The notes under the pieces were generated by a model. It was not told the origin of the DNA, ran no database searches, and saw only the letters and a program-made list of their open reading frames with translations. 64,000 nucleotides of DNA from Candidatus Sulfomarinibacter sp. GTDB taxonomy: Bacteria > Acidobacteriota > Thermoanaerobaculia > Thermoanaerobaculales > Sulfomarinibacteraceae. The position numbers and the translations under genes were made by a program. Below, piece by piece: positions 21,537 to 37,308 of this stretch (position 1 is its first letter; every line of letters starts with the position of its first letter). Location: assembly GCA_041560205.1 (NCBI GenBank), contig JBFFBV010000015.1:1571-65570 (forward strand), written 5' to 3'.

Positions 21537-21974
21537 ATGGCTATCTCGGTGCTCCTGGTCGACGACGAAGAGGCCTTCGTGCAGACGCTCGCCAAGCGGC
21601 TGACGCTTCGTCGATTCAACGTCTATACCGCCAGTCGAGCCGAGAAGGTCTTTTCCACTCTCCAGCAATACCCGATCGACGTCGTTGTCCTCGACGTCAA
21701 GATGCCGGATCTCGACGGGATCGAGACCACCCAGGTCATCAAGACAGATCACCCGCTGATCGAGATCATTCTCCTCACCGGTCACGCCAGCCTCGAAGCT
21801 TCGCTCGAGGGGATGAGGCGAGGGGCCTTCGACTACCTGCTCAAACCGGTCAACATCGACGAGCTGGTTTACAAGATCGAGGACGCTCACGAGAAAAAGA
21901 AACTGCAGGAGGAGAAGATCAAGCGCCTGGAAGACCGCACTGAAGCGGCCGACGACGCCGAATCCGACACATGA
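21537..21974 (+). CDS. Stand-alone response-regulator receiver with coiled-coil tail
   Basis: ATG 21537 after GGGGAGGA. LVDDE, VLDVKMPDLDG, LTGHA and YLLKP are present. Lys/Glu-rich C-terminal tail. Confidence 0.85.
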   Translation: MAISVLLVDDEEAFVQTLAKRLTLRRFNVYTASRAEKVFSTLQQYPIDVVVLDVKMPDLDGIETTQVIKTDHPLIEIILLTGHASLEASLEGMRRGAFDYLLKPVNIDELVYKIEDAHEKKKLQEEKIKRLEDRTEAADDAESDT

Positions 21975-21975
21975 G

Positions 21976-24555
21976 ATGAATGCACCCTCATGGTTGCGCC
22001 AATTGATCGACCGCCTTCGCGGCGCTCCGTCGAAGCGGCCTGACCCCGAGGAGGCGCGAAACCTCTTTCAGCGGCGTTACCACGCCTTGCGGTTGTTGCT
22101 CGCCGCCAACACGAGGGCTCTCAAGGCCATGGCGGCGATGGAAGGAGCCGCAATCGAGGGTGGCGCCGTCGGCATGACCTTCGTCCACTCCCACTGCACC
22201 GCGATCGGCGTCAATGTCTTCAAAATGGTGCGAAACCTCGACATGCTCGCGCCGGACAAATACACCCTCTTGTTCGACCGCATCGAAGAGATTCAGGGCC
22301 GAATCGACCGCGAGCTCGCGGCCGTTCCCCCGGCCGATGATGTGCCGCCCATCCTGCCGATGGACGCGGTTCATCACATCCACATTGACGTCACTGGCTC
22401 GAAGATGGCCAGCCTCGGCGAGGTCGCCAACAACGTCGGGCTTCCAGTGCCGGACGGCTTTGTCATCACCACCTCGGCCTATCAGCGTCTGATCGCCGCC
22501 AACGACCTCCAGCCCGAAATCAGTCGCTTGCTCCAGGCCTACCAGTCGGAGGAGCTCGATGAGCTCTTCGTCCTTGCATCCAAACTCCAGCAGCTCATCC
22601 TGACGGCCGAGGTGCCGGAGGAGATTGCGATCGCCATCGACGGCGCAGCCGAGGCGACCGGTCCAGCCCCCGACAGCACATTCGCCATGCGGTCGAGTGC
22701 ACTCGGAGAGGACGCGGCCGGGGTCTCGTTTGCCGGTCAGTACGAATCGCTCCTCAACGTGCGCCGCACCCATCTGGTCGACAGCTATCTCGAGGTTGTC
22801 GCCAGCAAGTACACACCGCAGGCGATGCAGTACCGCAAACAGCGTGGAATCCGAGACGACCAGGTGGCGATGAGCGTCGGATGTCTGGAGATGGTCGACG
22901 CCCGGTCAGGAGGCGTGGTGTACTCCGGCAATCCGGGCAACGACCGGGATTCCGATGTCTATATCAGCTCCGCCTGGGGACTGCCGAAGTCGATCGTCGA
23001 CGGTCGATTCGCCTCGGATCTCTTCGTTGTTCACAGAGACGGAAAGCTCGCGGAGCGTTCCCGTGAGATCGGTGTCAAGCAAAGCCAGTTTGTCCGCCAC
23101 CCTCGCGAGGGCGTGCGTCGATCAGAGGTTTCCGCCGACAAACAACGGCAACCGAGCCTCAGCGATGAGGAGGTCATCGAGATCGCGGAGGCCGCCCTCA
23201 AGCTGGAGTCCCACTTTGGCAAGCCGGTCGACGTCGAGTGGGCAATCGATCGCGACGGCACGCTCGTGATTCTCCAATGCCGTCCCTTGACGCAGTCAAT
23301 CGGCACCTCCGATCACGAGCTTCCCGTGGACACCCCTTTGCCGCTGATCAGAGGAGGCGTCGCCGCCAGCCCGGGAGTCGCCGCCGGTCCGATCCACTGG
23401 GTCAATCGAGACGCCGATGCGCTGTCCTTTCCCCGCAATGCCGTCCTCGCCCTCGTCCAGCCACTGCCCCGGTGGGCCGCACTGCTCGATCGCACCGCCG
23501 CAGTGATCGCCGAGGAGGGTGGGGTCGCCGGACATCTGGCGACCGTGGCCCGCGAGCTCGGTGTGCCGGCAATCCTTGGCGCCGGACCACTCACCACGCT
23601 CGAAAACGGTCTCGAGGTCACGGTCGACGCCAGTGGCCGCGCCGTCTACCCGGGCGTGATCGAGACGCTGATCGAACGTCGCGCCGAGCCTCCGAAGGTG
23701 GATGGCGACAACCCGATCCGGCGTACCCTCCGCTCGGCGCTGGCCCACATCGCGCCCCTGAATCTGGTCGACCCCACGAGCCTCGACTTCACGCCCGGCA
23801 GCTGTGAAACCATGCACGACATCACGCGTTTCTGTCACGAAAAGGCCGTGCAGGAGATCTTCGCCTTCGGTTCGGAAAGCTCCTTTCCCGAATACGCGAG
23901 CAAACAGCTCCACCACAACGTTCCCATGCAATGGTGGGTGTTGGACCTCGGGAACGGCCTGAAAGGGCCTGTCTTCGGGAAATACGTGCATCTCGACGAC
24001 ATCGCCTGCAGGCCGATGTTGGCGCTGTGGGACGGCATGGTCGCGGTGCCGTGGGACGGCCCGCCCGCTATCAGTGGCCGTGGCTTGGCATCAGTGCTTT
24101 TTCAGGCGACCGCGAACCCGGCGCTCTCCAGCCCCTTCAAGAAGCCGTATGCCAACCGGAACTACTTCATCATCTCCAAGCACTTCATGAACCTCCAGTC
24201 ACGATTCGGCTTCCACTTCACAAATGTCGAGGCGCTCGCGGGAGAGCGTCCGGAGGAAAACTACCTGAGTTTTTCGTTCAAAGGCGGCGCCGCCAACCAG
24301 GAGCGCAGGGTCGGTCGCGCACGTTTGATCGGCGATCTCCTCCGAGGACTCGGTTTCGAGATCAACCTCACCGAGGATATGGTGACCGCACGCAGGACCG
24401 GCCTTCAACAGCAAGATGTCGCAAAAGGCCTGCGAGTCGTCGGCTACCTCCTGATGCACACCCGCCAACTCGACATGGTCATGGACAAGCCAGCTGCGGT
24501 GGAACACTATCGAGCCAAAATGCAGAAGGACATCGAAAACCTGGCGGTGAACTGA
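21976..24555 (+). CDS. PEP-synthase/PPDK-like enzyme (ATP-grasp PEP/pyruvate-binding domain + swivel His domain) with unassigned N- and C-terminal regions
   Basis: Starts 1 nt after the receiver stop. VGLPVPDGFVITTSAY, FAMRSSALGEDAAGVSFAGQYES and VEWAIDRDGTLVILQCRP indicate a PPDK_N-type ATP-grasp. GGVAGHLATVARELGVPAI is the phospho-His swivel. The last 300 aa or so are not recognised. Confidence 0.8.
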   Translation: MNAPSWLRQLIDRLRGAPSKRPDPEEARNLFQRRYHALRLLLAANTRALKAMAAMEGAAIEGGAVGMTFVHSHCTAIGVNVFKMVRNLDMLAPDKYTLLFDRIEEIQGRIDRELAAVPPADDVPPILPMDAVHHIHIDVTGSKMASLGEVANNVGLPVPDGFVITTSAYQRLIAANDLQPEISRLLQAYQSEELDELFVLASKLQQLILTAEVPEEIAIAIDGAAEATGPAPDSTFAMRSSALGEDAAGVSFAGQYESLLNVRRTHLVDSYLEVVASKYTPQAMQYRKQRGIRDDQVAMSVGCLEMVDARSGGVVYSGNPGNDRDSDVYISSAWGLPKSIVDGRFASDLFVVHRDGKLAERSREIGVKQSQFVRHPREGVRRSEVSADKQRQPSLSDEEVIEIAEAALKLESHFGKPVDVEWAIDRDGTLVILQCRPLTQSIGTSDHELPVDTPLPLIRGGVAASPGVAAGPIHWVNRDADALSFPRNAVLALVQPLPRWAALLDRTAAVIAEEGGVAGHLATVARELGVPAILGAGPLTTLENGLEVTVDASGRAVYPGVIETLIERRAEPPKVDGDNPIRRTLRSALAHIAPLNLVDPTSLDFTPGSCETMHDITRFCHEKAVQEIFAFGSESSFPEYASKQLHHNVPMQWWVLDLGNGLKGPVFGKYVHLDDIACRPMLALWDGMVAVPWDGPPAISGRGLASVLFQATANPALSSPFKKPYANRNYFIISKHFMNLQSRFGFHFTNVEALAGERPEENYLSFSFKGGAANQERRVGRARLIGDLLRGLGFEINLTEDMVTARRTGLQQQDVAKGLRVVGYLLMHTRQLDMVMDKPAAVEHYRAKMQKDIENLAVN

Positions 24556-24601: not shown

Positions 24602-25660
24602 ATGAGCAAGCAACGGATCACCAACGGGGCCCTCGCCGAGGCGCTGTTCGCGCTCGCCGAGTCGGAACCGCCCGGAGACCGGCGGCTGGCGTTGTTGCGC
24701 GCCGGATACCTCGCCTTCGACAGCCCTGGCAGACCGCATCGCGACCTGCAACGAAATGCGCCGAGCTGGCTGCAGCCGCTGCTTCAGCAGCTGGTGGCAT
24801 GCCGCGGCAACGACGCTCTTCATGCCGCGGTCCAACGCCTCAAGGGCGACGAAAACCCTCGCCGCAGGAACACCCGTCAGGGATATCTGAGCCGCTCGGA
24901 AGTGACCGAGATCCTCGAATCGGGCCCTGCCGATCTCCACCCCCGGCGGCAGCGCGGCGCGTGCCACTGGCACACCCGCAACTCGGACGGCAAGGCGTCA
25001 CTCGAGACCATGGCGCGGGCCTGCGTGAGGCGCGGCTACGCGTGGTCGATGGTCGCCGATCACTCGCGCGGTCTCGAGGTTGCCTCCGGTCTCGACGCAG
25101 AAGGCGTGTGGCTTCAGCGGCAACGGATCGACCGATGGAACGACCAGCACGGCGATGACCACCGCATCTTCCAGGGGCTCGAAATCGAGGTTCTGGAAGA
25201 TGGCACACTCGACGTGCCGAAAGGCGAACGTCTCGAGGTGGAGTGTGTGGTGGCCGCAGTCCACAGCCACTTCGACGCCGACCGCGATCAGACCGAGCGC
25301 CTGCTTCGCGCTGTCAATTCGCCCGAAGTCCATGTCCTCGCGCATCCGCGCGGCCGGCATTTCCATCACCGGCCCGGCATCAAGGCGCGCTGGGAAAAGG
25401 TTTTTTCGGCCTGCGCCGAAACGGGAGTCGCTGTCGAGATCAACGGCTTCCCCCGCCGTCAGGACCTCGACCCCGACCTCGCGCGGCTCGCCGTCGAATC
25501 GGGCTGCGAGATCATGCTTGCCTCCGACGCGCACGCCGCGCCTCATCTCGAGTTCGACACCTTTGCATCAGCCATCGCGATGCGCGCCGAGGTGCCCCGC
25601 GAGGGCATCCTGAACATTCAACACGCCGACGAGTTCGAGGCGTGGCTTGAGGAGCGCTGA
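24602..25660 (+). CDS. PHP-domain phosphoesterase
   Basis: HWHTRNSDG (HxH) plus later His/Asp ligands (AAVHSH, ASDAH), as in PolX C-terminal PHP domains. No polymerase-beta domain seen. Confidence 0.7.
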   Translation: MSKQRITNGALAEALFALAESEPPGDRRLALLRAGYLAFDSPGRPHRDLQRNAPSWLQPLLQQLVACRGNDALHAAVQRLKGDENPRRRNTRQGYLSRSEVTEILESGPADLHPRRQRGACHWHTRNSDGKASLETMARACVRRGYAWSMVADHSRGLEVASGLDAEGVWLQRQRIDRWNDQHGDDHRIFQGLEIEVLEDGTLDVPKGERLEVECVVAAVHSHFDADRDQTERLLRAVNSPEVHVLAHPRGRHFHHRPGIKARWEKVFSACAETGVAVEINGFPRRQDLDPDLARLAVESGCEIMLASDAHAAPHLEFDTFASAIAMRAEVPREGILNIQHADEFEAWLEER

Positions 25661-25693
25661 GAACTGAGAAGCGCTTCGCGCTTCAGCGAGCCG

Positions 25694-25773
25694 GGTGCCA
25701 CCCTTCGCATTGTTTGAGGGACCACTCCCAAGCGTCCTTCGTTCTGAGGGCAAACAATGTGAAGAGTGGCACC
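25694..25773. repeat. Long imperfect inverted repeat (23-bp arms, 34-nt loop)
   Basis: ggtgccacccttcgcattgtttg (25694-25716) against caaacaatgtgaagagtggcacc (25751-25773), with 21 of 23 positions complementary. It lies between convergent genes. Confidence 0.6.
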
Positions 25774-25819
25774 GGTGTCGTCGATGCGGCACGCGCGTCT
25801 CACTGGGGCCGGGTCCGGC

Positions 25820-26287
25820 CTATCGATTAGCCGGTGGGGTGCCCGCGATGCTGATCGAAGCGGACGGCTGGTTCGAGTTGATCACCGCCTCGACCTCGAC
25901 CAGGGTGGTGGTCTGAAGTCGCTCCCGGAGCATGTTGTTGGCTTCAACCAGAATCTGTCCGAGGATGCACGACTCGCCGTCACAGATGGCCGAGCTCAGA
26001 AGGCACTGGCTCGGTTCGAACCGGCCCTCGATGGCTTCGAAGATCTCGAGCAGAGTCACCGACTCGGGCTCGCGGGTCAGGATGAATCCGCCCCGCGGGC
26101 CGCGAACCGAGCGCACCAGCTCGACCTTGACCAGGCGTTGCAGCACCTTCGAAAGGTGGGCTTCGGAAATCTCGAACCAATTGGCGATCTCCCGGGAGGT
26201 GATCGGTCCGTCCTCACGTTTGGCGAGGTATCCAAGGGCGTGCATCGCCAGCGACGCCGCCTCGGAGATCTTGAGAGCACGCGGCAT
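25820..26287 (-). CDS. Rrf2-family transcriptional regulator with three-Cys cluster
   Basis: wHTH ITSREIANWFEISEAHLSKVLQRLVK. QCLLSSAICDGESC (C-x6-C-x4-C) sits where IscR/NsrR-type members carry Fe-S ligands. Start is ATG 26287, with TTG 26308 as an alternative. Confidence 0.85.
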   Translation of the reverse strand: MPRALKISEAASLAMHALGYLAKREDGPITSREIANWFEISEAHLSKVLQRLVKVELVRSVRGPRGGFILTREPESVTLLEIFEAIEGRFEPSQCLLSSAICDGESCILGQILVEANNMLRERLQTTTLVEVEAVINSNQPSASISIAGTPPANR

Positions 26288-26340
26288 TTCGTTCTCCGGC
26301 TCGTTCAATGTGTCGCAGAAGTCGGCGCCGGATGGCGCCG

Positions 26341-26393
26341 TCCTTGACCTCGGTCAAGGATAGCTTGACCACATTCAAGCTAATCAGTATTGT
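26341..26393 (+). promoter_or_regulatory. Two palindromes overlapping a sigma70-like promoter for the nos electron-transfer operon
   Basis: TCCTTGACC-tc-GGTCAAGGA (26341-26360) and AGCTTGA-N6-TCAAGCT (26362-26381). TTGACC (26365-26370), 17 nt, TATTGT (26388-26393). Confidence 0.45.
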
Positions 26394-26492
26394 AATGCCG
26401 AAACTCGGATTGAGAATTCCAACACCGGCGAGACGGCAGGGGGGCATGACGAGGATCATGGTCGCCGACACTGTCACAGGAACGGGCCGGCA

Positions 26493-28451
26493 GTGGTGAG
26501 CGATTCCACCGCCACCGACCCTCGTTTTCCCGCTCGCTTCAACGAGCTGCCGTGGTACCGGACCAACGTGCCGTGCATGGAGGCTTGTCCGGTTCATACA
26601 GATTCCGGGCGTTATGTCCAGCTCATCGGCGAAGGGCGTTTCGAGGAAGCATTTTTGATCGCTCGCGCGCCAAACCCGCTCGCGTCGGTTTGCGGCCGGG
26701 TCTGCTCCGCGCCGTGCGAGGATGCCTGCCGCCGCGGCTGGGTCGACGAAGCAGTCACCATCCGGCCGCTCAAACGATTCGTCACCGAGCAATTCGGAGC
26801 CGAGTCGGCGCGCCCCGATTTCTTCAAGCTCCTGATGTCCGACCCACAGATCGACGCCGAGGCAGAGGACCCCGGGTGTCGCCGCCGGTGGCACGTGGAC
26901 CAGCTCAGCCGCGAAGAACTCGGCGGTGACCGAGCCCGGCGTGTCGCGATCATCGGCAGCGGTCCGGCCGGACTCGGCTGCGCCCACGATCTCGCGCTTA
27001 TGGGTTACGACGTCACGGTCTTCGAGGCCATGCCCGAGCTCGGCGGCATGCTCCGCTACGGGATTCCCGAGTATCGGCTTCCGCGAGGGGTCATCGACCG
27101 CGAGATCGCGGCGATCGAAAAGCTCGGTGTCACCTTTCTGACCAACATGCCGATCTCCCGCGAGTACGGACTCAGCCACCTCCGCGAGGAAGGCTTCGAA
27201 TCTTTCTTCCTGTCGGTCGGCGCAACGCGCGGCCGGGATCTCAATATCGAAGGCGCCGACAAGGACGGGGTCATCAAGGCGGTGGACTATCTCCTCAACC
27301 TCAACCGCGGCTACCGGGTCGATCTCGGAGACCGGGTCGTGGTCATCGGCGGTGGATCGGTGGCGCTCGACGCCGCGCGGACCGCAGTCCGCGAGTTCTA
27401 CCAACCGATGGAGGAGATCGAACTGACCGCCCACGCGGTCGCCAGCCAGCCAGCGATGGACGCCGCTCGCGGAGCGCTGCGAGGCGGCGCCTCCGAGGTC
27501 CACGTCATCTCTCTCGAATCCCTCGAAGAAATGCCGGCGGCGCAGACGGTACAGGGCAAGGACGAGCTCGACGAGGCGCTCGAGGAAGGCATTCTCCTCC
27601 ATCCGGGGTGGGGCCCAACGAAGATCGCCGGCGACGGGGAGGTCGAGTCCATCGAGTTCGTCGGCGTCGAGCGCGTCTTCGACGACAACGGCCGTTTCAA
27701 TCCCTCTTTCGACAAATCCCGGACGATGGTCCTCAACGCCGACTCGGTCATCCTCGCCATCGGTCAACAACCCGATTTCGACTTTCTCACCGCGGCGGAC
27801 GCCATCGAGCTGAGCCCGACCGGAACGGTCAAAATCGACCCCGACACCCTGGCGACGACCGCCCCCGGCGTCTTTGCCGGCGGCGACGCCGCCTTCGGTC
27901 CCCGCATCGCCATCGAGGCGGTGGCCAACGGCAAACACGCTGCGCGCTCGATCCACGAGTTCCTGTCGGGCACGGCCGCCGAGACGAAGATGCGGGTCGC
28001 AATCGATCTGATCCCAGCCGCCGAGTACGCGATGCCCGAAGTCTATGAAAAGAAGAGCCGCCGGGCGGCGCCGACGGTTGCCTCGGGCCGACGTACAGGG
28101 ATCACCGAGGTCGAAGAGGTGATGTCTCCGGAGCAGGCCAGGAACCAGGCCGAGCGCTGCCTGTCGTGCCATGTCGACACCATTTACGACCCGCACCGTT
28201 GCGTGCTGTGCAACCGTTGCGCGGACGTCTGTCCCGAGAAGTGTCTGACCTTTCTACCCCTTGATCGGGTCGAGATGCCGGTCGAACAGCTCGAGAAGGC
28301 GATCGAGGCCTATGGCCATGACCCGGATGAGCCCATGACCGTCCTTCTCAAGGACGACACGATCTGCATACGCTGTGGGCTCTGCGCGGCGCGTTGCCCG
28401 ACCGAGGCGATCACCATGGAACGCTTCAACTTCATCGAATCAACGGGGTGA
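26493..28451 (+). CDS. GltD/NfnB-like NAD(P)H-dependent Fe-S flavoprotein with C-terminal 2x[4Fe-4S] ferredoxin domain
   Basis: GTG start. N-terminal Cys clusters (CMEACP, CGRVCSAPCEDAC), Rossmann loops IIGSGPAG and VIGGGSVA, GVFAGGD. C-terminal CVLCNRCADVCP and CIRCGLCAARCP. No signal peptide. Confidence 0.8.
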   Translation: MVSDSTATDPRFPARFNELPWYRTNVPCMEACPVHTDSGRYVQLIGEGRFEEAFLIARAPNPLASVCGRVCSAPCEDACRRGWVDEAVTIRPLKRFVTEQFGAESARPDFFKLLMSDPQIDAEAEDPGCRRRWHVDQLSREELGGDRARRVAIIGSGPAGLGCAHDLALMGYDVTVFEAMPELGGMLRYGIPEYRLPRGVIDREIAAIEKLGVTFLTNMPISREYGLSHLREEGFESFFLSVGATRGRDLNIEGADKDGVIKAVDYLLNLNRGYRVDLGDRVVVIGGGSVALDAARTAVREFYQPMEEIELTAHAVASQPAMDAARGALRGGASEVHVISLESLEEMPAAQTVQGKDELDEALEEGILLHPGWGPTKIAGDGEVESIEFVGVERVFDDNGRFNPSFDKSRTMVLNADSVILAIGQQPDFDFLTAADAIELSPTGTVKIDPDTLATTAPGVFAGGDAAFGPRIAIEAVANGKHAARSIHEFLSGTAAETKMRVAIDLIPAAEYAMPEVYEKKSRRAAPTVASGRRTGITEVEEVMSPEQARNQAERCLSCHVDTIYDPHRCVLCNRCADVCPEKCLTFLPLDRVEMPVEQLEKAIEAYGHDPDEPMTVLLKDDTICIRCGLCAARCPTEAITMERFNFIESTG

Positions 28452-28456
28452 GAGCT

Positions 28457-29005
28457 GTGGCATCAACAGAAACGATTCCGAGCGATGTTCGAGTCTCCGG
28501 TGACCAGGCGAAGCCGACGCGGCGGGGTTTCCTCGGGCGGTTGACCGCCGCAGTCGCGGCGGCCGGCGCCCTGGTCGCGAGCTGGCCGCTGCTGCGGTCG
28601 CTGGTCCCGAATGTGCTCTACGAGCCACCGAAGAAGTTCCGCATCGGCGCACCCGAGAGCTTCCAGGAAGGGGTGACCTTTCTCGAGGAACACCGGCTCT
28701 TCCTGTTTCGCGAGCGCTCGAATTTCCACGCCATCTCCGGCATTTGCACCCACCTCGGTTGCACGGTGAAGTTTTCGCCCTTCACGCTGCCGCAGGAAGA
28801 GACCGTTCGTGATTTCGCCTACCGCGCCCTCGGCGAGTTCCACTGCCCGTGCCACGGCTCGAAGTTCAGGGGTGAAGGCACCAACTACGCGGGCCCCGCT
28901 CCGCGGCCGCTCAAGTGTTTTCACCTCGAGGTGTCACCCGCGACCGGCGAGCTGGTGGTCGATGTGTCGAACGAGGTCTCGCGCGACTTCAGATTGGTGG
29001 TCTAG
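28457..29005 (+). CDS. Rieske [2Fe-2S] subunit with Tat signal
   Basis: RRGFLGRL twin-arginine motif plus hydrophobic helix. CTHLGC and CPCHGS cluster boxes. Start is GTG 28457 (or GTG 28448, overlapping the upstream stop). Confidence 0.85.
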   Translation: MASTETIPSDVRVSGDQAKPTRRGFLGRLTAAVAAAGALVASWPLLRSLVPNVLYEPPKKFRIGAPESFQEGVTFLEEHRLFLFRERSNFHAISGICTHLGCTVKFSPFTLPQEETVRDFAYRALGEFHCPCHGSKFRGEGTNYAGPAPRPLKCFHLEVSPATGELVVDVSNEVSRDFRLVV

Positions 29006-30502
29006 ATGATCCTTCAGAGACTCACCGGCCTCTGGGACAAGCTGATCTGGCCGTGGCGGCCCGAGTCGAACCGCGAGGCGGGCTCGGGCATCGTCGCCAA
29101 CTTCCTCCTCCACTGGTTTCCCAATCGGATCTCGCTCCGCAGCCTCAAGTTCTCGGCCTCGATGTATCTCGGCACCATCACCTTCGTCGTCTTTATGGTT
29201 CTCACCGTGACCGGCGTCGTGCTGATGTTTCTCTACGTGCCGTCGGTGGAGCGCGCGTACTGGAGCATCAAGGACCTCGACCACGCGGTGAGCTTCGGCT
29301 GGCTGCTCAGACGGCTGCACCGGATCTCGGCCCACCTGATGGTGGCGCTGGTCTTTCTCCACATGTTCCGGGTCTTTCTCACCGGCTCGTACAAAGCCGG
29401 TGAGATCGTCACGTCGGCTCGCCCCTTCAACTGGGTGCTCGGTGTGACGCTGCTGGTGTTGACGTTGTTGCTGAGCTTCACGGGTTATCTCCTGCCGTGG
29501 GATCAGCTCGCCTTCTGGGCGATCACGGTCGGCACCAACATCGCGGCGGCCGTTCCATGGGTGGGGGAGACGATCCGCCAGTTCCTGCTCGGTGGCACCA
29601 TCATCGGCCAGCCGACGCTGATCCGCTTCTACGTCCTCCACTGCGCCCTGCTGCCGATTGCGCTCTTCGCCATCGCCGCCTGGCACATGTGGCGGATCCG
29701 CAAGGACGGCGGCCTCGCGATCGTCGAGCAAGACCGGCAGGAGGCGCTGAACCGAGAGCCGGCGGTGCCGAAGAAAAGCAAGACCTACAGCGTCCTCGGC
29801 ATCGCCAGCGGCACCACGGTCCAGGTCAACGACCCAACGACCCTCAACGAATCAAACTCGGTGCCATCGACGCCGTTCCTCACGGTTCGCATCCTGGTCG
29901 TGACATTGCTCACGATCGCAGTTTCGATCGGTCTGTCCCTGGTCGTGCAGGCGCCGCTCGAGGAGGCCGCCAACCCCGAGGTCACCCCCAACCCGGCCAA
30001 GGCGCCATGGTACTTCCTGGGTCTGCAGGAGATGGTCGGCTACTCGGCGCTGATGGGCGGGGTGATCGTGCCGACCCTGGTCATCTTCGGCCTCATGCTG
30101 ATCCCCTTCCTCGACCGCGAGCAGGGCGGCATCGGTCTCTGGTTCACGGACGGCGCCGGGCGCAAATGGGCGGTCTTCGGCTTTCTCTACGGAGCGATCA
30201 CGACCTGCGGATGCCTGGTGCTGGCGATCCTCGCTCCGACGCGCGACATCTTTCCGACCATCGAGAGCCAGTTCTTCTTCGATCTCGTCAACCCGGCGAC
30301 CTTTCTGCTGGCGCTCTTCGCGGGCATGTACTTCGTGGTCCTCAAAAAGACGGCGTCGACGCGCTACGCAGCGATGGCGACATTCTGCGCTTTCATCATC
30401 TCCTTCATCATCCTGACCTATACCGGCACCTCTCTGCGCGGGCCGAACTGGGACTTCTTCTGGCCGTGGCAGGCGTGGCCGGCCCACCCGATGGCGCTGT
30501 GA
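29006..30502 (+). CDS. Cytochrome b (fused b6 + subunit IV type) of a Rieske/cyt b complex
   Basis: Starts directly after the Rieske stop. Haem His pairs are [15 protein letters not shown] (14 apart) and [16 protein letters not shown] (15 apart, the b6-type spacing). The C-terminal half carries PWYFLGLQE, a PEWY-type Qo motif variant. Confidence 0.85.
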
Positions 30503-30510
30503 GGTAGACG

Positions 30511-31734
30511 ATGATCAAAAAGATTAGCCAGCGCGAAATCCAGCTGCTGCTCGTCGCCGCCGTCGCCATCCTCGTGGTCGGCGTGGCGGTCATTTTCGTC
30601 GACACCTCACCGGAGTGGAAGTACTACCAGTCAGAGTTCGAGGCCATCGTCGCCGAGAACATCGCCGACGTTGACCCATCATCCCTGCCGTGGGGGATCC
30701 AGCAGATCTGGGTGGAGAAGCTCGATCGTGTCGACCGCTGCACCACCTGTCATCTCGGCATGACCTGGCGCGGCCTCGAGAACATCGAGCAGCCGTGGAC
30801 CACCCACCCGATGTCCGGCATCTTCGACGACCACCCGATCGAAGAGTTCGGCTGCACGGTCTGCCACGGAGGGCAGGGCTACGCCCTCACCGAGTACGAC
30901 GCGCACGGTTTCGTCGAGCATTGGGAGGAGCCGCTGCTGTCGGACATTGCGGCCTCTGAATACGATCCGCGCAACCCGCCTCCGCTTCACGAGATCCAGT
31001 GCAACTTCTGTCACCGCTACGAACGCTCGACCGAGGGCATGCCCTATATCAACAAGGCCAAAGAGCTGGTGCGGACCAAGGGCTGCAAGATCTGCCATGT
31101 CATCAACGGCACCGGCGGCAAGCTCGGGCCCGATCTGACCCGGGTCGGCGACAAGCACGCGGAGGGCTTCGATTTCTCCAACCTCGTGTCGGATCAGATG
31201 ACGGTCTTCAACTGGCACATCAAGCACTTCCAGTCACCGCCAACGATCGTACCCGGCTCGATCATGCCGGAGATGAACTTCCAGTCATCCGACGCCCACG
31301 CGCTGGCGATGCTGGTCATGAGCTGGCGCGACGACGAGGATCTCCCTCGCGCCTTCCTGCCGGGCGTCGAGCTCAAGGACGAGATGACGCCTGAGGAGGT
31401 CGAGCGCGATCGCCGGATGCGCGAAGGCGACGGCGCCTTCTTCGTCGAGCACAGCTGCTTCGTCTGTCACAGCATCAAGGCCTACGACATCAAATCGCCG
31501 ACTGAAAAAGGACCGGACCTTTCGCTCGCTCCGGATGACGTTCGGGTCAGATTCAACAAGACGGTCGAGGAGTTCCTCTTCGACCCGACCGGCACGATGA
31601 AGATCATTCTCGAGAGCCAGATCGTGCTCACCGACGAGGAGAAATGGCAGGCCGTCGAAAAGATCATGAAGGCCTACGACATCGTCAAAAACAGGGAAGC
31701 GGCGGCCGAGGCCGCCGCCGCAAGCGGTTCGTAG
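30511..31734 (+). CDS. Membrane-anchored pentahaem c-type cytochrome
   Basis: N-terminal TM. Five CxxCH motifs: CTTCH, CTVCH, CNFCH, CKICH, CFVCH. The last two sit in class-I-like units (GPDL...MPEM). Confidence 0.85.
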   Translation: MIKKISQREIQLLLVAAVAILVVGVAVIFVDTSPEWKYYQSEFEAIVAENIADVDPSSLPWGIQQIWVEKLDRVDRCTTCHLGMTWRGLENIEQPWTTHPMSGIFDDHPIEEFGCTVCHGGQGYALTEYDAHGFVEHWEEPLLSDIAASEYDPRNPPPLHEIQCNFCHRYERSTEGMPYINKAKELVRTKGCKICHVINGTGGKLGPDLTRVGDKHAEGFDFSNLVSDQMTVFNWHIKHFQSPPTIVPGSIMPEMNFQSSDAHALAMLVMSWRDDEDLPRAFLPGVELKDEMTPEEVERDRRMREGDGAFFVEHSCFVCHSIKAYDIKSPTEKGPDLSLAPDDVRVRFNKTVEEFLFDPTGTMKIILESQIVLTDEEKWQAVEKIMKAYDIVKNREAAAEAAAASGS

Positions 31735-31761
31735 CACCGCATAACAAGGAGGAGGCAGCAG

Positions 31762-33669
31762 ATGAACAATAGAAAGACAATCTTTCGACTGATGATCGCG
31801 CTGGTCGTTATCGGGCTCTTCGTCGGGCTTGCGGCGTGCGGCAAGAAACCGCCGCAGCGGCGCGGCGCACGCGCCGGCGGCGGCGGCACATCCGACCTCA
31901 CGAGCGCGGCTCTGGCGACCTACGTGGCGCCTGGTGACCTCGACGAGTACTACCTTTTCTACTCGGGTGGTCACAGTGGCCAGATCTTTGTCTCCGGCAT
32001 CCCGTCGATGCGCCACATCGCGACGATCCCCGTCTTCACCCCGTATCCCGGCACCGGCTACGGTTTCGACGACGAGACAAAGGAGATGCTCGGTGGCTAC
32101 TCGTGGGGAGATTCCCACCACCCAGGCTTCTCCGAAACTGGCGGCGAGTACGATGGCCGCTGGCTCTTCATCAACGACAACGCCAACGGCCGCATGGCTC
32201 GGATCGACTTGAAAGACTTCAAAACCAAGCAGATTCTGAGCATTCCGAACATTTCGGCCAACCACGGCAGTTCGTTCGTCACCCAGAACTCGGAGTACGT
32301 CACCATGGCGACCAGGATGTCTGTGCCGTTCCCCGAAGGCACGTACGCCGATGTCACCGAGTACGCCACCAAGTACAAGGGAATCGTGGCAGGGATCAAG
32401 ATCGATCCCGACGACGGCAATCTGACCCTTGGTTGGGAAATCCTGGTGCCGCCGTTCAACTACGATCTCGGTGATTCCGGAAAGGGTCCGTCCGACGGAT
32501 TCCTCTTCTGGACCTGCTACAACTCGGAACGCGAGTTCATCGAGGGCGGCAAGCTCGAGGTGACGGCTTCCCAGAAGGACAAGGACTTCATCCTGATGGT
32601 GGACTGGCGCGAGGCCGAGAAGCAGATCGCGGCCGGCAACTTCACGACCGTCAAAGGCGCCCCGGTCATCGATCCCGTCAATGCACCCGGAGTTGCCTAT
32701 TTCATGCCGCTTGCGAAGTCACCGCACGGGGTCGACGTCTCTCCGACCGGTCAATGGATCATCGGCTCGGGCAAGCTGTCGCCGACCACGACCGTCTACG
32801 ACATCGAAAAGATCAAAACGGCCATCGCCAACAAGGACTTCGAGGAGACCATCGACGGCATCCCGGTGCTGACCTACAACTCGGTCCGTGAAGCCGAGAT
32901 CCCGGTCGGGCTCGGTCCGCTCCACACCCAGTTCGACGACAAGGGCTACGCTTATACCTCACTCTTTGTCGAGAGCGCGGTCGCCAAGTGGAAGCTGCCG
33001 CCGTACGAGGCCGGCAACGACATGAACCAGTACATCGTCGACAAAATCCCGGTCGCCTACAACATCGGTCACCTGGTATCGGCGGAAGGCGACTCGATGA
33101 ACCCCGACGGCAACTACCTGGTCGCCCTCAACAAGCTTTCCAAGGGTCGCCATCTCTCCGTGGGACCATCGATTCCGGAGTCGGCGCAGCTGATTGACAT
33201 CTCGGGCGACAAGATGAAGCTTCTCTATGACGCCTTCACCGAGCCCGAGCCCCACTACGCTGTGATTATCAAAGCCGACAAATTGGATCCGGTCGAGATC
33301 TACAAGAAAGACGATCCGTACTGGCACAAAAACCCGAACGCCACGTGGACGACCGAAGACGCGCGGATCGAACGCCGTGGCAATACGGTCGAGGTATGGA
33401 TGATGGCTGTTCGTTCCTTCTTCGCACCTGACGTGATTCGAGTCAACAGGGGCGACAAGGTCATTGTCCACGTGACCAACATCGAGCAGACTCGGGACGA
33501 GCTGCACGGCTTCGCCATCGACAACTACAACATCAATCTGGTGATCGATCCTGGTGAAACCAAGACGGTGACCTTCACCGCAGACAAGTCCGGCGTCTAC
33601 GCGTTCTACTGCACGAACTTCTGTAGCGCACTGCACCAGGAGATGCAGGGCTACTTCCTCGTGAAATAG
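31762..33669 (+). CDS. nosZ: Nitrous-oxide reductase NosZ, clade II (atypical), predicted lipoprotein
   Basis: CuA motif CTNFCSALHQEM at the C-terminus. CuZ region DSHHPG is of DxHH type, lacking the third His of clade I. Further His motifs: SPHGVD, GPLHTQFD, NIGHL. The signal peptide ends in lipobox LAAC with no twin-Arg. Strong RBS AAGGAGGAGG. Confidence 0.92.
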   Translation: MNNRKTIFRLMIALVVIGLFVGLAACGKKPPQRRGARAGGGGTSDLTSAALATYVAPGDLDEYYLFYSGGHSGQIFVSGIPSMRHIATIPVFTPYPGTGYGFDDETKEMLGGYSWGDSHHPGFSETGGEYDGRWLFINDNANGRMARIDLKDFKTKQILSIPNISANHGSSFVTQNSEYVTMATRMSVPFPEGTYADVTEYATKYKGIVAGIKIDPDDGNLTLGWEILVPPFNYDLGDSGKGPSDGFLFWTCYNSEREFIEGGKLEVTASQKDKDFILMVDWREAEKQIAAGNFTTVKGAPVIDPVNAPGVAYFMPLAKSPHGVDVSPTGQWIIGSGKLSPTTTVYDIEKIKTAIANKDFEETIDGIPVLTYNSVREAEIPVGLGPLHTQFDDKGYAYTSLFVESAVAKWKLPPYEAGNDMNQYIVDKIPVAYNIGHLVSAEGDSMNPDGNYLVALNKLSKGRHLSVGPSIPESAQLIDISGDKMKLLYDAFTEPEPHYAVIIKADKLDPVEIYKKDDPYWHKNPNATWTTEDARIERRGNTVEVWMMAVRSFFAPDVIRVNRGDKVIVHVTNIEQTRDELHGFAIDNYNINLVIDPGETKTVTFTADKSGVYAFYCTNFCSALHQEMQGYFLVK

Positions 33670-33732
33670 AAATGGCTCGTGGGCCCCGGCGCACCGCTGG
33701 TCGGTCGCCGGGGCGCGATTTTCGAGGTGCAC

Positions 33733-34368
33733 ATGTCTATGTTCAACCGGCTCACCGCATCTCTCGACCAGCCCCTCACGGGTCGCAGCCGGGTGGCGGT
33801 TCTGGTGGCCGCTCTGGTGTTGATCCCGACGTTTTTCGTGCCGCTGTGGCACATGACCTTCGTCGCACAACAATATCCCGAGGGCCTCGACCTCTACGTC
33901 TACTCCCACAATCTTGTGGGGGGCGATGACGGCAATGACCTGACCGAGATCAACGTGCTCAACCATTACATCGGCATGGCCGAGCTGCGGCCGGCAGACT
34001 TCACCGAGCTCAAATGGATTCCGCTGGTCATCGGTTTGATCGGAATCTTGACCCTTCGGGCGGCCTCGATCGGTACGCTGCGTTCGGTGGTTGATGTGAT
34101 CGTGGCGTCGTTCTATTTCGGTGGGTTTTCGATGTGGAGCTTCTGGTACAAGCTCCACTCCTACGGCGCCAACCTCGACCCCAAGGCTTCGGTCCAGGTC
34201 GAGCCGTTTATGCCGCCGATGTTCGGATACAAGCTCGTCGGCCAGTTTGACGTGTGGTCCTATCCGGCGATGGGGACCTATCTCTTTTTCCTCTTCGGGT
34301 TGTTGCTGGTCGTCGGATTCTGGCTGACGTGGCGTGAGGCGGATGTCGACCCGCCATCCGCCGTATAG
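33733..34368 (+). CDS. nosB: NosB-like integral membrane protein
   Basis: Sits immediately downstream of clade II nosZ, the position characteristic of nosB. Four predicted TM helices. The call rests on position and topology only. Confidence 0.55.
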   Translation: MSMFNRLTASLDQPLTGRSRVAVLVAALVLIPTFFVPLWHMTFVAQQYPEGLDLYVYSHNLVGGDDGNDLTEINVLNHYIGMAELRPADFTELKWIPLVIGLIGILTLRAASIGTLRSVVDVIVASFYFGGFSMWSFWYKLHSYGANLDPKASVQVEPFMPPMFGYKLVGQFDVWSYPAMGTYLFFLFGLLLVVGFWLTWREADVDPPSAV

Positions 34369-34381
34369 AAGGGAAGGAATC

Positions 34382-34885
34382 ATGAAGAAACTTGCTCTGA
34401 TAATTCTCGCAACTGCATTTGGAATTGGATGCGGTGGTGCAGCGGAAGAAGCGACCTACGAGAGTGATACACCACCGCCAGCGCCGTTGCTTGAAGTCGA
34501 AGCGCCGGCCGCGCTCGAGGTGCCCGATCCGGTCGAGGTGACGGCCGACGATGATTGGCAGGCGAGGTCCCACAACAAGAACATCGAGGTGATCGGGGTG
34601 ATCAACGTCATCAATCCTGTCGCGGCCTACATCACCGAGGGCTTCAACCAGTACGGCGATAGCTTCAGCCCCACCTTGCACGAGGAGTGGGAGGACACGC
34701 AGGCGCAGCTGACCATGGCGACGACCCTGTACGAAGACTGCCAGGCGCGAATGGCGGCCGGCAACCACGACAAACAGCTCTTCCTCGATCTCGAGCAGGT
34801 GTGGCAGCTGCTGGTCAAGACCGGTGTCGCCGGCGTTCGCACCAAGAGCATGGTCGACAGCGAGCTGGCGAAGCTCAAGGGCTGA
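34382..34885 (+). CDS. Hypothetical lipoprotein inside the nos operon
   Basis: ATG 34382 after GAAGGAA. Signal MKKLALIILATAFGIGC (lipobox-like), acidic Pro-rich linker, then a helical region of about 110 aa. No family recognised. Confidence 0.6.
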   Translation: MKKLALIILATAFGIGCGGAAEEATYESDTPPPAPLLEVEAPAALEVPDPVEVTADDDWQARSHNKNIEVIGVINVINPVAAYITEGFNQYGDSFSPTLHEEWEDTQAQLTMATTLYEDCQARMAAGNHDKQLFLDLEQVWQLLVKTGVAGVRTKSMVDSELAKLKG

Positions 34886-34987
34886 CCGACGGATCTTTCG
34901 AATCGAACGACGGCGCGCCGCGGAAGTAAACTGCCGGGGCGCAGCGTGTGCTATATCTGACATCTTGATCAACGGGGAGAAAAAGTC

Positions 34988-36376
34988 GTGAAGCGAGCCC
35001 TCTGCCTGCTGGCCGCGATGTGGTCGGTGACCACCGTCGCCGCGGTCCACGAGGTGCCGGTTGGCGGGTCGATCTCTGCCGTCCTCGACCAGGCTTCGCC
35101 GGGCGACACGGTGCGCCTCGCGGGTGCGGTCTACCGCGAGAACATCGTCATCGGTGTGCCGGTCGTGCTCACCGGCAGGGAGGGAACGGAGATTCGTGGC
35201 GGATACGAGGGCAACGTGGTGCACATCACGGCGCCCGGAACCGTGCTGGACGGTCTCCACATTGCCGAGGCCGGTCCCCATTTGACCAAGGACATGGCGT
35301 GCGTACTGGTCGAAGCCGACGAGGTGACGATTCGCAACTGCAGGATCTCGGAATCGCTGCACGGAATCTACGTCAAAGCCGGGAACGGCACCGAGATCGT
35401 CGGCAACAGCGTCGAAGGCCGGCTCGACCTGATCGAGGCCGACCGGGGCAACGGCATCCATCTCTGGAACTCGTCCCAAAACCTCGTCGCGGCAAACGAG
35501 ATCTTTAACGTCAGGGACGGCATCTACTTCTCGTTTGCCCATTTCACCGAGGTCGAGCGGAACCACATCCACCACGTGCGCTACGGCCTCCATTACATGT
35601 ATTCAAACAACAATTCCTTCTACGACAACCTCTTCGAGAGGAACGTGGCGGGTGCTGCGCTGATGTACTCCGAGGACATCGTTTTCGCGCGCAACACTTT
35701 TGCCCGATGCCGGGGATTTCGCGCCTACGGCATCCTGCTGCAATCGATGAGCCGGGTCACGGCCACCTCGAACCTGATCATCGACAACAGCCGCGGCATT
35801 TTCATGAACAACGCGGACTCGAATCGCATCGAAAGCAACGACGTCGTTGACAACGACCTCGCTGTCCAGCTCAACGGCGGCTGCGATGCCAATCTGCTGG
35901 TTCGCAACAACTTCATCAACAACCTGTCGGAGCTGCTGCTCGACGTCAGCGACCTCGAGACGCGGTGGGCCGACGACGCCGGGGGCAACCACTGGAGCGG
36001 CTACCGCGGGTATGACCTCAATGGTGACGGCGCCGGCGACCTCCCGTTTTCGATCCAAAACGTCTTCCAGGTTCTCGAATCCAAGGTGCCGGAAGCCCGG
36101 TTCTATCTGCTCAGCCCGGCGGCCGAGGTGCTCAAGGCCGCCGAGCGCGCCCTCCCCATACTCCGGCTCGGCGACGCCGAGGACCCGCTGCCATCGCTCC
36201 TGCCGATCGCCAACGATGCGGTTCCCTGGCAGGCTGTCGACAGCGCTCGGCTCGATGGCAGCCCCCTGGCGGCGTCGATTTTTCTCGCCGGCAGCGCATT
36301 TCCGGTCGCGTCGTTGTGGTACCTCGGTCGGCCGCGAAGGTGGAGAAGAAACCGCGGCGCGAAGGGTAGTGAATGA
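34988..36376 (+). CDS. nosD: NosD periplasmic beta-helix copper-centre maturation protein
   Basis: Sec signal. Repeated parallel beta-helix units (NGIHLWNSSQNLV, RDGIYFSFAHFTEV, RYGLHYMYSNNNSF, RGIFMNNADSNRI). C-terminal membrane-proximal segment. Confidence 0.88.
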   Translation: MKRALCLLAAMWSVTTVAAVHEVPVGGSISAVLDQASPGDTVRLAGAVYRENIVIGVPVVLTGREGTEIRGGYEGNVVHITAPGTVLDGLHIAEAGPHLTKDMACVLVEADEVTIRNCRISESLHGIYVKAGNGTEIVGNSVEGRLDLIEADRGNGIHLWNSSQNLVAANEIFNVRDGIYFSFAHFTEVERNHIHHVRYGLHYMYSNNNSFYDNLFERNVAGAALMYSEDIVFARNTFARCRGFRAYGILLQSMSRVTATSNLIIDNSRGIFMNNADSNRIESNDVVDNDLAVQLNGGCDANLLVRNNFINNLSELLLDVSDLETRWADDAGGNHWSGYRGYDLNGDGAGDLPFSIQNVFQVLESKVPEARFYLLSPAAEVLKAAERALPILRLGDAEDPLPSLLPIANDAVPWQAVDSARLDGSPLAASIFLAGSAFPVASLWYLGRPRRWRRNRGAKGSE

Positions 36377-37308
36377 GTCCGGTGAGCGACCCGATGGTCC
36401 GATTCGAGGGCTTCGCTAAGTGCTACGGCTCCCTCGAAGCGGTCAAACCGCTCGATCTGGAGATCGCGGAGGGGGAGTCCTTCGCGCTGCTCGGGCCCAA
36501 TGGTGGCGGCAAGACGACGGTGCTGCGCGCCCTCGTCGGACTGCAGTCCCCAACCGACGGCAAGATCTTCGTCGCCGACGTCGACATCACCGCACAACCC
36601 GACGAGGTGCGGAGGCTCTTCGCCTACGTCCCGCAACGGGTGACAATGCCCGACGTGCTCACCGCGCACGAGATCCTGACGACCTTCGCCGGGTTGCGGG
36701 GCATGAGCGAAGATCGGGTGGCCGAGGTGTTGAATCTGCTGGCGCTGACGGATGACGCCGATCGACAGGTCGGTGAGTTCTCCGGCGGTATGGTGCAGCG
36801 CCTCGGGCTCGCCGCAGCACTGCTCGAAGAGGTTCCCCTCCTGGTGTTGGACGAGCCGACCCTCAATCTCGACCCGCAGGGCATCGACAGCCTGCACCGG
36901 GTGCTCACCGAGCTCAACAACCGGGGCACGACCATTATCTTCTCGTCCCACAGCATTCACTCCGCCGTCCAGCTCGCCGACAGGGTCGGCGTCATGGTCG
37001 AGGGCGCTCTCGTGGTGTCGGAGCCGGTCGCGAAATTTCAGGCCGAGGTCACCCGCCAGACGACGGTCCGGGTGGTCCTCGACCGGCTCGATGACGCGAT
37101 TCTCCACGCGGCCCAAAAAGCCGGCGCCGATGTGCGCGAGTGCAACGCGACCCACGTGTCGTTCCGGGCCTTGCCGGAGGCGAGGCTCGAGGTGATTCGG
37201 GCGATCGAGAAGGCCGGAGGCACGATCGAAGAGTTCCACACCGAGGCGCCGGGTTGGGAATCGCTCGTGCAGACCCATTTCAACGGCGGGGGAGAGAGGC
37301 ATGAATGA
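36373..37308 (+). CDS. nosF: NosF ABC-type ATPase
   Basis: ATGA overlap with nosD. Walker A GPNGGGKTT, signature SGGMVQR, Walker B LLVLDEP. Confidence 0.88.
   Translation: MSPVSDPMVRFEGFAKCYGSLEAVKPLDLEIAEGESFALLGPNGGGKTTVLRALVGLQSPTDGKIFVADVDITAQPDEVRRLFAYVPQRVTMPDVLTAHEILTTFAGLRGMSEDRVAEVLNLLALTDDADRQVGEFSGGMVQRLGLAAALLEEVPLLVLDEPTLNLDPQGIDSLHRVLTELNNRGTTIIFSSHSIHSAVQLADRVGVMVEGALVVSEPVAKFQAEVTRQTTVRVVLDRLDDAILHAAQKAGADVRECNATHVSFRALPEARLEVIRAIEKAGGTIEEFHTEAPGWESLVQTHFNGGGERHE

Follow-up and report, generated by a model that had tools for sequence, protein, structure and literature searches.

The 64,000-nucleotide (nt) stretch analyzed here, hereafter the window, lies on contig JBFFBV010000015.1 of Candidatus Sulfomarinibacter sp. 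and contains five consecutive genes that encode a flavoprotein with iron-sulfur (Fe-S) cluster motifs, a Rieske protein, a cytochrome b, a pentaheme cytochrome c, and the nitrous oxide reductase NosZ (Table 1). Open reading frame (ORF) listing and translations reproduced the genes and motifs of the original prediction for this DNA, together with the gaps of 5, 0, 8, and 27 nt that separate successive genes. A Pfam scan detected Fer4_20, Pyr_redox_2, and Fer4 domains in the flavoprotein, a Rieske domain with a twin-arginine translocation (Tat) signal in the second product, Cytochrome_B and Cytochrom_B_C in the third, and nos_propeller and cupredoxin domains in NosZ. The five-gene arrangement is far beyond chance and recurs in every related locus that we examined, and positions 26493-33669 hold the core genes for electron transfer in a nos operon of clade II. 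By annotation, the rest of the 64 kb is ordinary chromosome with genes for SelB, SerRS, GlnA, kinases, and similar proteins.

We analyzed the conservation of this gene order in two sets of loci, with phylum labels taken from record titles. A flavoprotein profile scan of a collection with one genome per species yielded at least 555 relatives, the best 80 of which (50-83% identity to the window protein) were examined; metagenome loci were anchored instead on the pentaheme cytochrome c. The nearest genome locus among the matches listed (L001, 83% identity) belongs to a metagenome-assembled genome (MAG) of Candidatus Sulfomarinibacteraceae, which we take to be an Acidobacteriota family. Rieske was the next gene in all 78 flavoprotein-anchored loci with downstream sequence, followed by cytochrome b and a multiheme cytochrome c, and nosZ came next in 68 of the 69 loci that continued past the cytochrome c gene. 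From the cytochrome c anchor, the flavoprotein gene was found in 34/34 metagenome loci with enough upstream sequence and nosZ in 57/57 with enough downstream sequence. The median gap between the flavoprotein and Rieske genes was -4 nt (50 nt or less in 75/78 loci), and 4-nt overlaps of the stop and start codons of these two genes were present in independent source gene calls.

The hosts of these loci comprise several Acidobacteriota classes, Gemmatimonadota, Calditrichota, Bacteroidota/Ignavibacteria, KSB1, Zixibacteria, and Anaeromyxobacter, including the cultured Anaeromyxobacter PSR-1 (L063). Across these groups, 17 flavoprotein cysteines, the Rieske motifs, the four heme b histidines, and the five CxxCH motifs are invariant. 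The flavoprotein is thus the fixed first gene of a Rieske/cytochrome b/nosZ operon in at least seven bacterial phyla. This essentially invariant synteny, seen with either anchor gene, upholds the original proposal that the flavoprotein is part of the nos operon, and the counts of 78/78 for an adjacent Rieske gene and 34/34 for the presence of the flavoprotein dispose of the possibility, raised with that proposal, that related genomes would show no conserved order. On a 3.2-kb ENA contig, the flavoprotein and Rieske proteins are fused in frame (P0055, 826 aa) with the junction 12 residues before the twin-arginine motif, a single case that could be genuine or could stem from a lost stop codon or an assembly error. 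At L123 (4923-7727), a gene for an alpha-amylase secreted by the type IX secretion system lies between the flavoprotein and Rieske genes and breaks an otherwise universal adjacency; loss of the flavoprotein from this locus was considered and rejected because the gene is present, separated from Rieske by the insertion.

The N terminus of the flavoprotein is without a hydrophobic stretch, and reading the translation by eye, without a topology tool, revealed no long hydrophobic segment. Fer4_20 covers residues 25-102, Pyr_redox_2 residues 150-480, and two Fer4 motifs residues 565-641, and the translation contains the Rossmann loops GSGPAG and GGGSVA and two CxxCxxCxxxCP motifs (C570-C580 and C625-C635). 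From these features, the protein is predicted to be a cytoplasmic, NfnB/GltD-like flavin adenine dinucleotide (FAD)/nicotinamide adenine dinucleotide (phosphate) [NAD(P)] core followed by a C-terminal 2x[4Fe-4S] ferredoxin domain. The closest solved structures by sequence were subunits of the Bfu-type NfnABC/StnABC complexes (9bov_A, E = 1.6e-86; 9n5u_A; 8oh5_C), and then NfnB (4ylf_B, E = 4e-64; 5jca_L, E = 1e-57), GltD, and DPD. Foldseek with an AlphaFold2 (AF2) model returned the same order, with alignments of about 650-680 columns for the Bfu-type group and about 490 for the others and a TMt of 0.72-0.74 against NfnB. Sequence and Foldseek matches thus gave the flavoprotein the fold, the FAD, and the two-[4Fe-4S] domain of an NfnB subunit. 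In an HMMER alignment, the "RRxxFxEV...RCLxC" segment that starts Thermotoga maritima NfnB was found at residues 532-560, after the flavin domains, which indicates that the flavoprotein is circularly permuted as in 9bov_A.

Seventeen cysteines are invariant in the flavoprotein family (80 loci). Eight of them (Cys28, 32, 67, 71, 75, 79, 556, and 559) fall in segments aligning with the NfnB cluster domain, and we take these to be the ligands of two core clusters, with Cys556 and Cys559 plausibly completing the cluster begun by Cys28 and Cys32. Because Cys67/71/75/79 and the two CxxCxxCxxxCP motifs add to Cys28/32/556/559, we assign 16 of the 17 cysteines as probable ligands of four [4Fe-4S] clusters, with Cys584 as an extra residue. 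The position of the NfnB/NfnA "YRR" motif, which binds the 2'-phosphate of NADPH, reads S340-L341-E342 throughout the family. Two further features set the family apart. After the second GxGxxA/G loop, an insertion of about 20-25 residues duplicates an A-x-D-A-A-R helix, so that there are two copies of A-(L/M)-D-A-A-R-x-A-x-R spaced by about 30 residues (window 27360-27485, residues ~290-330); the presence of this insertion is conserved and its sequence is variable. The segment around residues 505-545 contains invariant residues such as Y512, Y518, R523, and R534-T535-G536 yet was modeled with low confidence, which would fit, speculatively, a segment that folds only on a partner.

The flavoprotein scored under the curated cutoff of every NCBIfam model. 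For the GltD models, scores were 190.7 bits for TIGR01317 (cutoff, 447.7), 226.1 for TIGR01318 (482.95), and 272 for TIGR01316 (471.75). GltB, the partner of GltD, is a protein of about 1,500 aa; in the 64-kb window, to which the comparison was confined, the longest listed ORF encodes 970 aa, and none is of GltB size. These cutoffs, the different architecture, and the synteny with Rieske/cytochrome b genes rule out a genuine GltD, in support of the original prediction, which such a placement would have contradicted. Source annotations name the flavoprotein glutamate synthase beta-like or formate dehydrogenase beta, the latter being a JGI name. We rejected "formate dehydrogenase beta," as no formate dehydrogenase catalytic gene occurs among the annotated window genes or in the conserved nos-locus order; the only molybdoenzyme belongs to a locus without nosZ (L060). 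We likewise rejected NfnAB: YRR is replaced, and no NfnA-like gene is among the flanking annotated genes, the window as a whole not having been searched for NfnA. No NosR-type or FMN (flavin mononucleotide)-binding domain appeared among the Pfam hits of the flavoprotein, whose flavin domain is of the Pyr_redox_2 type; any likeness to NosR would lie in function alone.

The Rieske translation contains RRGFLG, CTHLGC, and CPCHGS motifs and matched Pfam Rieske and UCR_Fe-S_N and the NCBIfam model TAT_signal_seq, and the product is by these signatures a Tat-exported [2Fe-2S] protein. The signature reads CPCHGS-K-F in the window and CPCHGS-(K/R)-(Y/F) in the family, with Ser135 in 70/70 sequences and position 137 occupied by Tyr in 41 and Phe in 29. 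The cytochrome b is, by Pfam and translation, of the fused cytochrome b6/subunit IV type. Its histidine pairs (105/119 and 212/227) are invariant, with the helix-D pair 14 residues apart as in b6-type proteins, and its quinol oxidation (Qo) motif, A333-P-W-Y336, is also invariant. The heme-cn CxGG position reads (W/Y)-L-G-T in 41/41 sequences, and heme cn is therefore not expected. His36 in the cytoplasmic N terminus and most residues of an H-M-W-R-x-R-K-D-G stretch after the bH ligand are invariant as well; His36 and R-x-R-K-D-G recall the His43/Arg247 interface heme of anammox AlphaFold3 (AF3) models (PMC12954380). The pentaheme cytochrome c retains its five CxxCH motifs in 64/64 sequences and has an N-terminal hydrophobic stretch that we read by eye as a probable membrane anchor.

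The histidines, Rieske boxes, and APWY motif place this cytochrome b, at the level of sequence, in the "APWY clade," which Kao and Hunte 2014 (PMC4122944) describe as spread across phyla and never characterized. In that paper, APWY-clade cytochromes b are paired only with Rieske proteins of predicted mid+ (S-F, ~260 mV) to high (S-Y) potential, and unusual or reverse operation is suggested for the complexes. On that basis, the Ser-Tyr/Phe signature found here predicts a mid-to-high potential of about 260 mV or more. Among NCBIfam models, the cytochrome b came nearest to ExtP/ExtQ, two paired cytochromes b from a "selenite/tellurite reduction operon," at 243 bits under a cutoff of 290, a hint that bc modules with unusual terminal reactions make up a wider family.

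The four-gene module also occurs apart from nosZ. The flavoprotein has a sister clade with about 55% identity to every nos-linked member and with more than 120 clusters in Binatia, Acidoferrales, and others. This clade keeps the four genes and their hallmarks (S-L-E-S, the Cys ligands, CPCHGS, LHWFP, (W/Y)LGx, and APWY), its duplicated-helix insertion is longer still, and nosZ is not adjacent. In a Binatia MAG (L060, 870-5425), the genes ahead of the module are those for a molybdopterin oxidoreductase with 4Fe-4S and NrfD membrane subunits, plus a cytochrome c. In two other loci (L081, 8190-9611; L083, 7876-9276), the gene upstream codes for a secreted protein of ~470 aa whose N-terminal part has one CxxCH and whose porin-like body closes with ...LLLWTPW, and a small monoheme cytochrome c gene follows. 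By its features, among them an aromatic residue at the C terminus, this protein resembles a Cyc2-type porin-cytochrome, and its only Pfam match is a weak Porin_O_P hit; the idea that a 473-aa neighbor in this clade is a divergent NosZ was rejected, as no similarity was found. The module, followed by nosZ in 68/69 and 57/57 loci of the two sets above, is thus not exclusive to nosZ, as molybdoenzyme and porin-cytochrome neighbors show. That the module is portable beyond nosZ argues for a general bioenergetic role rather than one in NosZ-specific maturation.

Table 1. Features of the nos operon and its upstream region (window positions)
Feature	Positions	Strand	Remarks
FNR/CRP-type palindrome TTGAC-CTCG-GTCAA	26344-26357		Perfect; 149 nt upstream of flavoprotein start
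Promoter-like site TTGACC-17 nt-TATTGT	26365-26393	+	In the 145-nt gap before the flavoprotein gene; consensus match only, weak
Flavoprotein gene	26493-28451	+	652 aa; ORF listing and translation
Rieske gene	28457-29005	+	GTG start; mechanical ORF opens at TTG 28394
Cytochrome b gene	29006-30502	+	ORF listing and translation
Pentaheme cytochrome c gene	30511-31734	+	ORF listing and translation
nosZ	31762-33669	+	ORF listing and translation
Hydrophobic protein directly after nosZ	33679-34368	+	Several hydrophobic stretches in translation; true start probably internal
Small predicted lipoprotein	34334-34885	+	Likely start MKKLALIIL... at ~34382; without family match
nosD, nosF, and two ABC-2 permease genes (NosY-like)	34988-38898	+	Pfam NosD/Beta_helix, ABC_tran, ABC2_membrane_2

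The NosZ of the window scored 852.9 bits against TIGR04246, the model for Sec-dependent, clade II enzymes (cutoff, 625), is without a twin-arginine motif, and has a lipobox-like signal, LAAC. By these matches, it is a clade II nitrous oxide reductase. The hydrophobic protein that comes next follows nosZ in loci whose contigs reach that far and has no Pfam or NCBIfam match. In clade II nos clusters, nosB sits directly after nosZ according to PMC11096178, and by position and hydrophobicity, with no matching family model, the product at 33679-34368 occupies the nosB position. The lipoprotein had tblastn matches in part of the 80 loci, mostly those with a flavoprotein nearest to that of the window. 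NosD, NosF, and the ABC-2 permeases are the copper-center maturation machinery, and Pfam annotation of 26-39 kb of the window contained neither nosR nor nosX. A gene for a TonB-dependent receptor (39038-41617, + strand) lies directly after the maturation genes and might encode a copper-uptake channel like NosA/OprC.

Upstream of the operon, the FNR/CRP-type palindrome has counterparts in L001 (-140) and L006 (-141), the closest relatives, and two Zixibacteria loci carry a similar box at -31 and -33, against a background rate of 0.005 per kb in 1.33 Mb of loci. The box is absent from the other 70+ loci, and we rejected it as a family-wide feature. The promoter-like site was the only + strand match of its kind in 25500-39500. 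In L084 (7798-9001, overlapping the flavoprotein gene), in L085 (8545-8982), and in 12 of 74 genome loci, a gene for an Rrf2-family regulator, which could be NsrR-like, immediately precedes the flavoprotein gene in the same orientation, which suggests that regulation of the operon acts ahead of the flavoprotein gene.

Farther upstream in the window (21486-24555, + strand), a response-regulator gene stands immediately next to one encoding an 859-aa PPDK_N/PEP-utiliser protein. This pair, of unusual signaling make-up, is kept upstream of the nos operon in L001, and the upstream matches in L006 were up352 and up193 only, without the pair. Elsewhere, the gene at 47413-50325 on the - strand encodes a 970-aa protein of unusual architecture, with a receiver domain at the N terminus, a Ser/Thr kinase domain, and TonB_C at the C terminus.

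The presence of an NAD(P)H-type flavoprotein as first gene suggests that N2O respiration is wired directly to cellular NAD(H) in these bacteria. The gene content, motifs, synteny, APWY membership, and NfnB-like architecture are read from the sequences; we infer a physical association of the flavoprotein with the membrane proteins, to which the gene overlaps and the single P0055 fusion point, as well as the use of NAD(H) over NADP(H) and a direction of electron flow. The reading that we prefer, tentatively and with somewhat less than even confidence, is a bifurcation at the Qo site that sends a high-potential electron to NosZ and a low-potential electron to NAD+. In this scheme, Rieske, cytochrome b, and pentaheme cytochrome c would form a membrane quinol:NosZ oxidoreductase, and the flavoprotein would be a fifth, cytoplasmic subunit docking through its C-terminal ferredoxin domain on the negative (n) side of the cytochrome b, where four [4Fe-4S] clusters would connect the low-potential heme b chain to FAD and NAD(H). 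Menaquinol would be oxidized at the Qo site. The first electron would run downhill through a mid-to-high-potential Rieske and the five c hemes to NosZ and N2O, and the second would pass over hemes bL and bH and the Fe-S chain to NAD+; reoxidation of the NADH by complex I would then translocate more charge per N2O. The host phyla presumably use menaquinone, and this, together with the APWY Qo motif, the S-Y/S-F Rieske signature, the occurrence of Ser135 in 100% of sequences, and the absence of the heme-cn cysteine, supports the bifurcating direction. The same scheme has been proposed for the anammox complexes Kuste4569-73 and Kustd1480-85.

A stricter form, in which bifurcation would be obligate and each menaquinol would give one electron to N2O and one to NAD+, appears rather doubtful to us; the module would then be a portable "quinol to NAD+" booster. 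If this form were true, an NADH-to-N2O chain with complex I would translocate about as many charges as aerobic respiration, and the booster would also serve different periplasmic partners of high potential, for example a porin-cytochrome or a molybdoenzyme.

Several points weigh against the bifurcation that we prefer. Hosts of the module are, we assume, mostly heterotrophs, and such bacteria would usually have NADH to spare, which favors the opposite direction. The association of the flavoprotein with the cytochrome b is a proposal drawn from gene content and order, and the quinone reduction (Qi) site of the cytochrome b is not judgeable from sequence. The use of NADH over NADPH is hinted at by one aligned motif, S-L-E for YRR. 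The AF2 monomer (pLDDT [predicted local distance difference test], 69; low in the Fe-S domains) proved too uncertain in those domains to yield inter-cofactor distances. The likeness to the anammox subunit Kuste4570 is indirect and comes from PDB neighbors and cluster count rather than from an alignment with the anammox sequence. With menaquinone at about -74 mV and a Rieske at about +260 to +300 mV, we estimate, after PMC12954380, that the second electron could reach about -400 to -450 mV, which would suffice for NAD+ reduction but only marginally once the membrane potential is counted, the Rieske and heme potentials being predictions from sequence.

In the main rival explanation, electrons would instead enter through the flavoprotein, which would oxidize NAD(P)H and pass electrons over the four Fe-S clusters to heme bH/Qi and menaquinone, with reoxidation at Qo. 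The operon would then encode a self-contained NAD(P)H:N2O oxidoreductase, by analogy with the FNR/ferredoxin input proposed for cyclic flow through cytochrome b6f. The linkage evidence serves this explanation equally, electron transfer from NAD(P)H to menaquinone is strongly downhill, GltD-type flavoproteins physiologically oxidize NADPH, and the assumed heterotrophy of most hosts fits. In addition, PMC5600118 cites the copurification of FNR with cytochrome b6f. We nevertheless regard electron input as fairly unlikely, since it would conserve less energy than complex I with a Q cycle, which makes its selective benefit doubtful, and it leaves the APWY motif, the mid-to-high-potential Rieske signature, and the loss of heme cn unexplained. 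It is also not the reading favored for the homologous anammox complexes (PMC12954380).

The flavoprotein might also have a NosR-like part in NosZ maintenance by sending low-potential electrons from NAD(P)H through the b hemes to keep CuZ active, with no part in bulk flux. NosR likewise combines a flavin with two [4Fe-4S] motifs on the cytoplasmic side, NosR and NosX are missing from clade II clusters, in line with the annotation of 26-39 kb here, and the Rrf2 gene and FNR-like box suggest coregulation with nosZ. This explanation is very unlikely in our view: no route from heme bL to the periplasm other than Qo chemistry is known, and the four-gene module also occurs without nosZ beside a molybdoenzyme or porin-cytochrome. 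Least probable of all is an independent soluble NfnB/GltD/"FdhB"-like enzyme with another partner (ferredoxin or a glutamate or formate enzyme) and an operon position that reflects coregulation only, an idea that draws on the source annotations and on the indirect character of the evidence for a complex but that conflicts with the scores under all GltD and related cutoffs, the lack of a GltB-sized ORF in the window and of a formate dehydrogenase catalytic subunit among its annotated genes (NfnA was not searched for), a conserved four-gene order without GltB, formate dehydrogenase, or NfnA, the overlapping stop and start codons, and a flavoprotein never apart from Rieske/cytochrome b genes in 78 + 34 loci.

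Organisms with clade II NosZ are regarded as the main biological sink of the greenhouse gas N2O, and to our knowledge, how they conserve energy from N2O is settled only for Wolinella. Coupling of their Rieske/cytochrome b complex to NAD(H), if real, would alter both the energy yield to be expected and the way in which N2O reduction ties in with cell redox state, which could help explain the success of Acidobacteriota, Gemmatimonadota, and Anaeromyxobacter as N2O consumers. Bifurcation would also extend quinol-driven NAD(P)+ reduction by a bc-type complex beyond anammox bacteria, for which alone it has been proposed and which are uncultivable in pure culture. At least 550 matching stretches occur in the one-genome-per-species collection, and some of the hosts can be grown and fractionated. 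Were bifurcation obligate, as in the stricter form above, the long-standing anammox hypothesis would become directly testable because cultured Anaeromyxobacter carry the module. For the uncharacterized APWY clade of cytochrome b, the nos context provides a first functional assignment.

Sanford et al. 2012 is said to be the origin of the figure convention "Fe-S, Rieske, cy-b, cy-c," and we take the window locus to be of the same type as the clade II clusters so labeled, with an Anaeromyxobacter locus among those that we found. The legends of published nos cluster maps list these gene classes (PMC11096178 Fig. 5, PMC13122619 Fig. 2), and from them, we infer that "Fe-S" is this flavoprotein gene. 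In the accessible parts of both papers, the class is labeled only as an iron-sulfur protein, and no flavin or NAD(P) site or role is discussed. A full-text literature search, with key subscription papers outside its reach, returned no paper that names the gene an NfnB-like NAD(P) flavoprotein or gives it a role in N2O respiration.

The APWY clade and cytochrome b subfamilies G and G' share with the window the APWY Qo motif, a Rieske of predicted mid+ to high potential, NAD(P)-binding Fe-S oxidoreductases, and a long cytochrome b. Dibrova et al. 2017 (PMC5600118) record that, outside planctomycetes too, Fe-S oxidoreductases that bind NAD(P) stand beside subfamily G cytochromes b "in many other cases," and they place the long cytochromes b of clade G' "in large conserved operons ... 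of an unknown function," a description that the window operon may fit. The text available of PMC4122944 and PMC5600118 makes no link between these operons and nosZ. Among flavoproteins, the Bfu-type NfnABC/StnABC subunits (9bov_A, 9n5u_A, 8oh5_C) have the same circular permutation relative to T. maritima NfnB, with a dicluster ferredoxin segment following. The window protein differs from them in lacking a molybdopterin-like C-terminal half and NuoF/HydB-like or NuoE-like partner genes, in having S-L-E for YRR and the insertion of ~20-25 residues, and in its membrane-protein partners. NfnB, GltD, and the N-terminal module of DPD resemble it in how the FAD and NAD(P) domains fold and in having the Fer4_20 domain with two clusters, but it has an extra C-terminal 2x[4Fe-4S] domain and always stands beside Rieske/cytochrome b genes.

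The closest known system is the anammox Rieske/cytochrome b complex with an NAD(P) reductase subunit. In Kuenenia stuttgartiensis, Kuste4569-4574 and Kustd1480-1485 both combine Rieske, a b6-type cytochrome b, multiheme cytochrome c, and, on the cytoplasmic side, an FAD/Fe-S subunit that binds NAD(P) in one cluster, and both the anammox and window clusters end with a nitrogen-oxide enzyme, HAO-like Kuste4574 in the former and NosZ in the latter. The window flavoprotein and Kuste4570 have the same nearest solved structures, NfnABC 9bov/9bp5 and FwdF 5t5i (PMC12954380), and have in common FAD and four Fe-S clusters, assigned in the window protein and modeled in the anammox subunits, where the clusters lie between FAD and the b hemes in a model built with 9bp5 and 5t5i (PMC12954380). 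These likenesses bear out the anammox parallel of the original prediction, but its restriction to anammox bacteria does not stand, given the NAD(P)-binding Fe-S subunits noted elsewhere (PMC5600118). Both modules carry the hydrogen-bond-donating Rieske serine that raises the potential, measured as +303 and +335 mV for anammox proteins with this serine (PMC12954380, 2025), and both have an invariant N-terminal histidine in cytochrome b, which in the anammox complexes is predicted to ligate an extra interface heme b, one such histidine coming from each cytochrome b (PMC12954380). The anammox quinone pool is menaquinone (PMC5600118), as it presumably is in the hosts of the window module, and bifurcation of menaquinol has been argued to be able to reduce NAD(P)+ in these complexes (PMC12954380).

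Unlike the anammox models, which include heme cN and a split cytochrome b, the window module has a cytochrome b fused with subunit IV and without the heme-cn cysteine, and a five-heme cytochrome c with NosZ as terminal enzyme is its own. Also unlike anammox, the nos-linked module is hosted by at least seven non-planctomycete phyla, including the cultured Anaeromyxobacter. While this kind of complex is known from anammox bacteria, what is new here is a putative anammox-type, NAD(P)-linked Rieske/cytochrome b complex that is dedicated to NosZ, widespread, and present in cultured bacteria.

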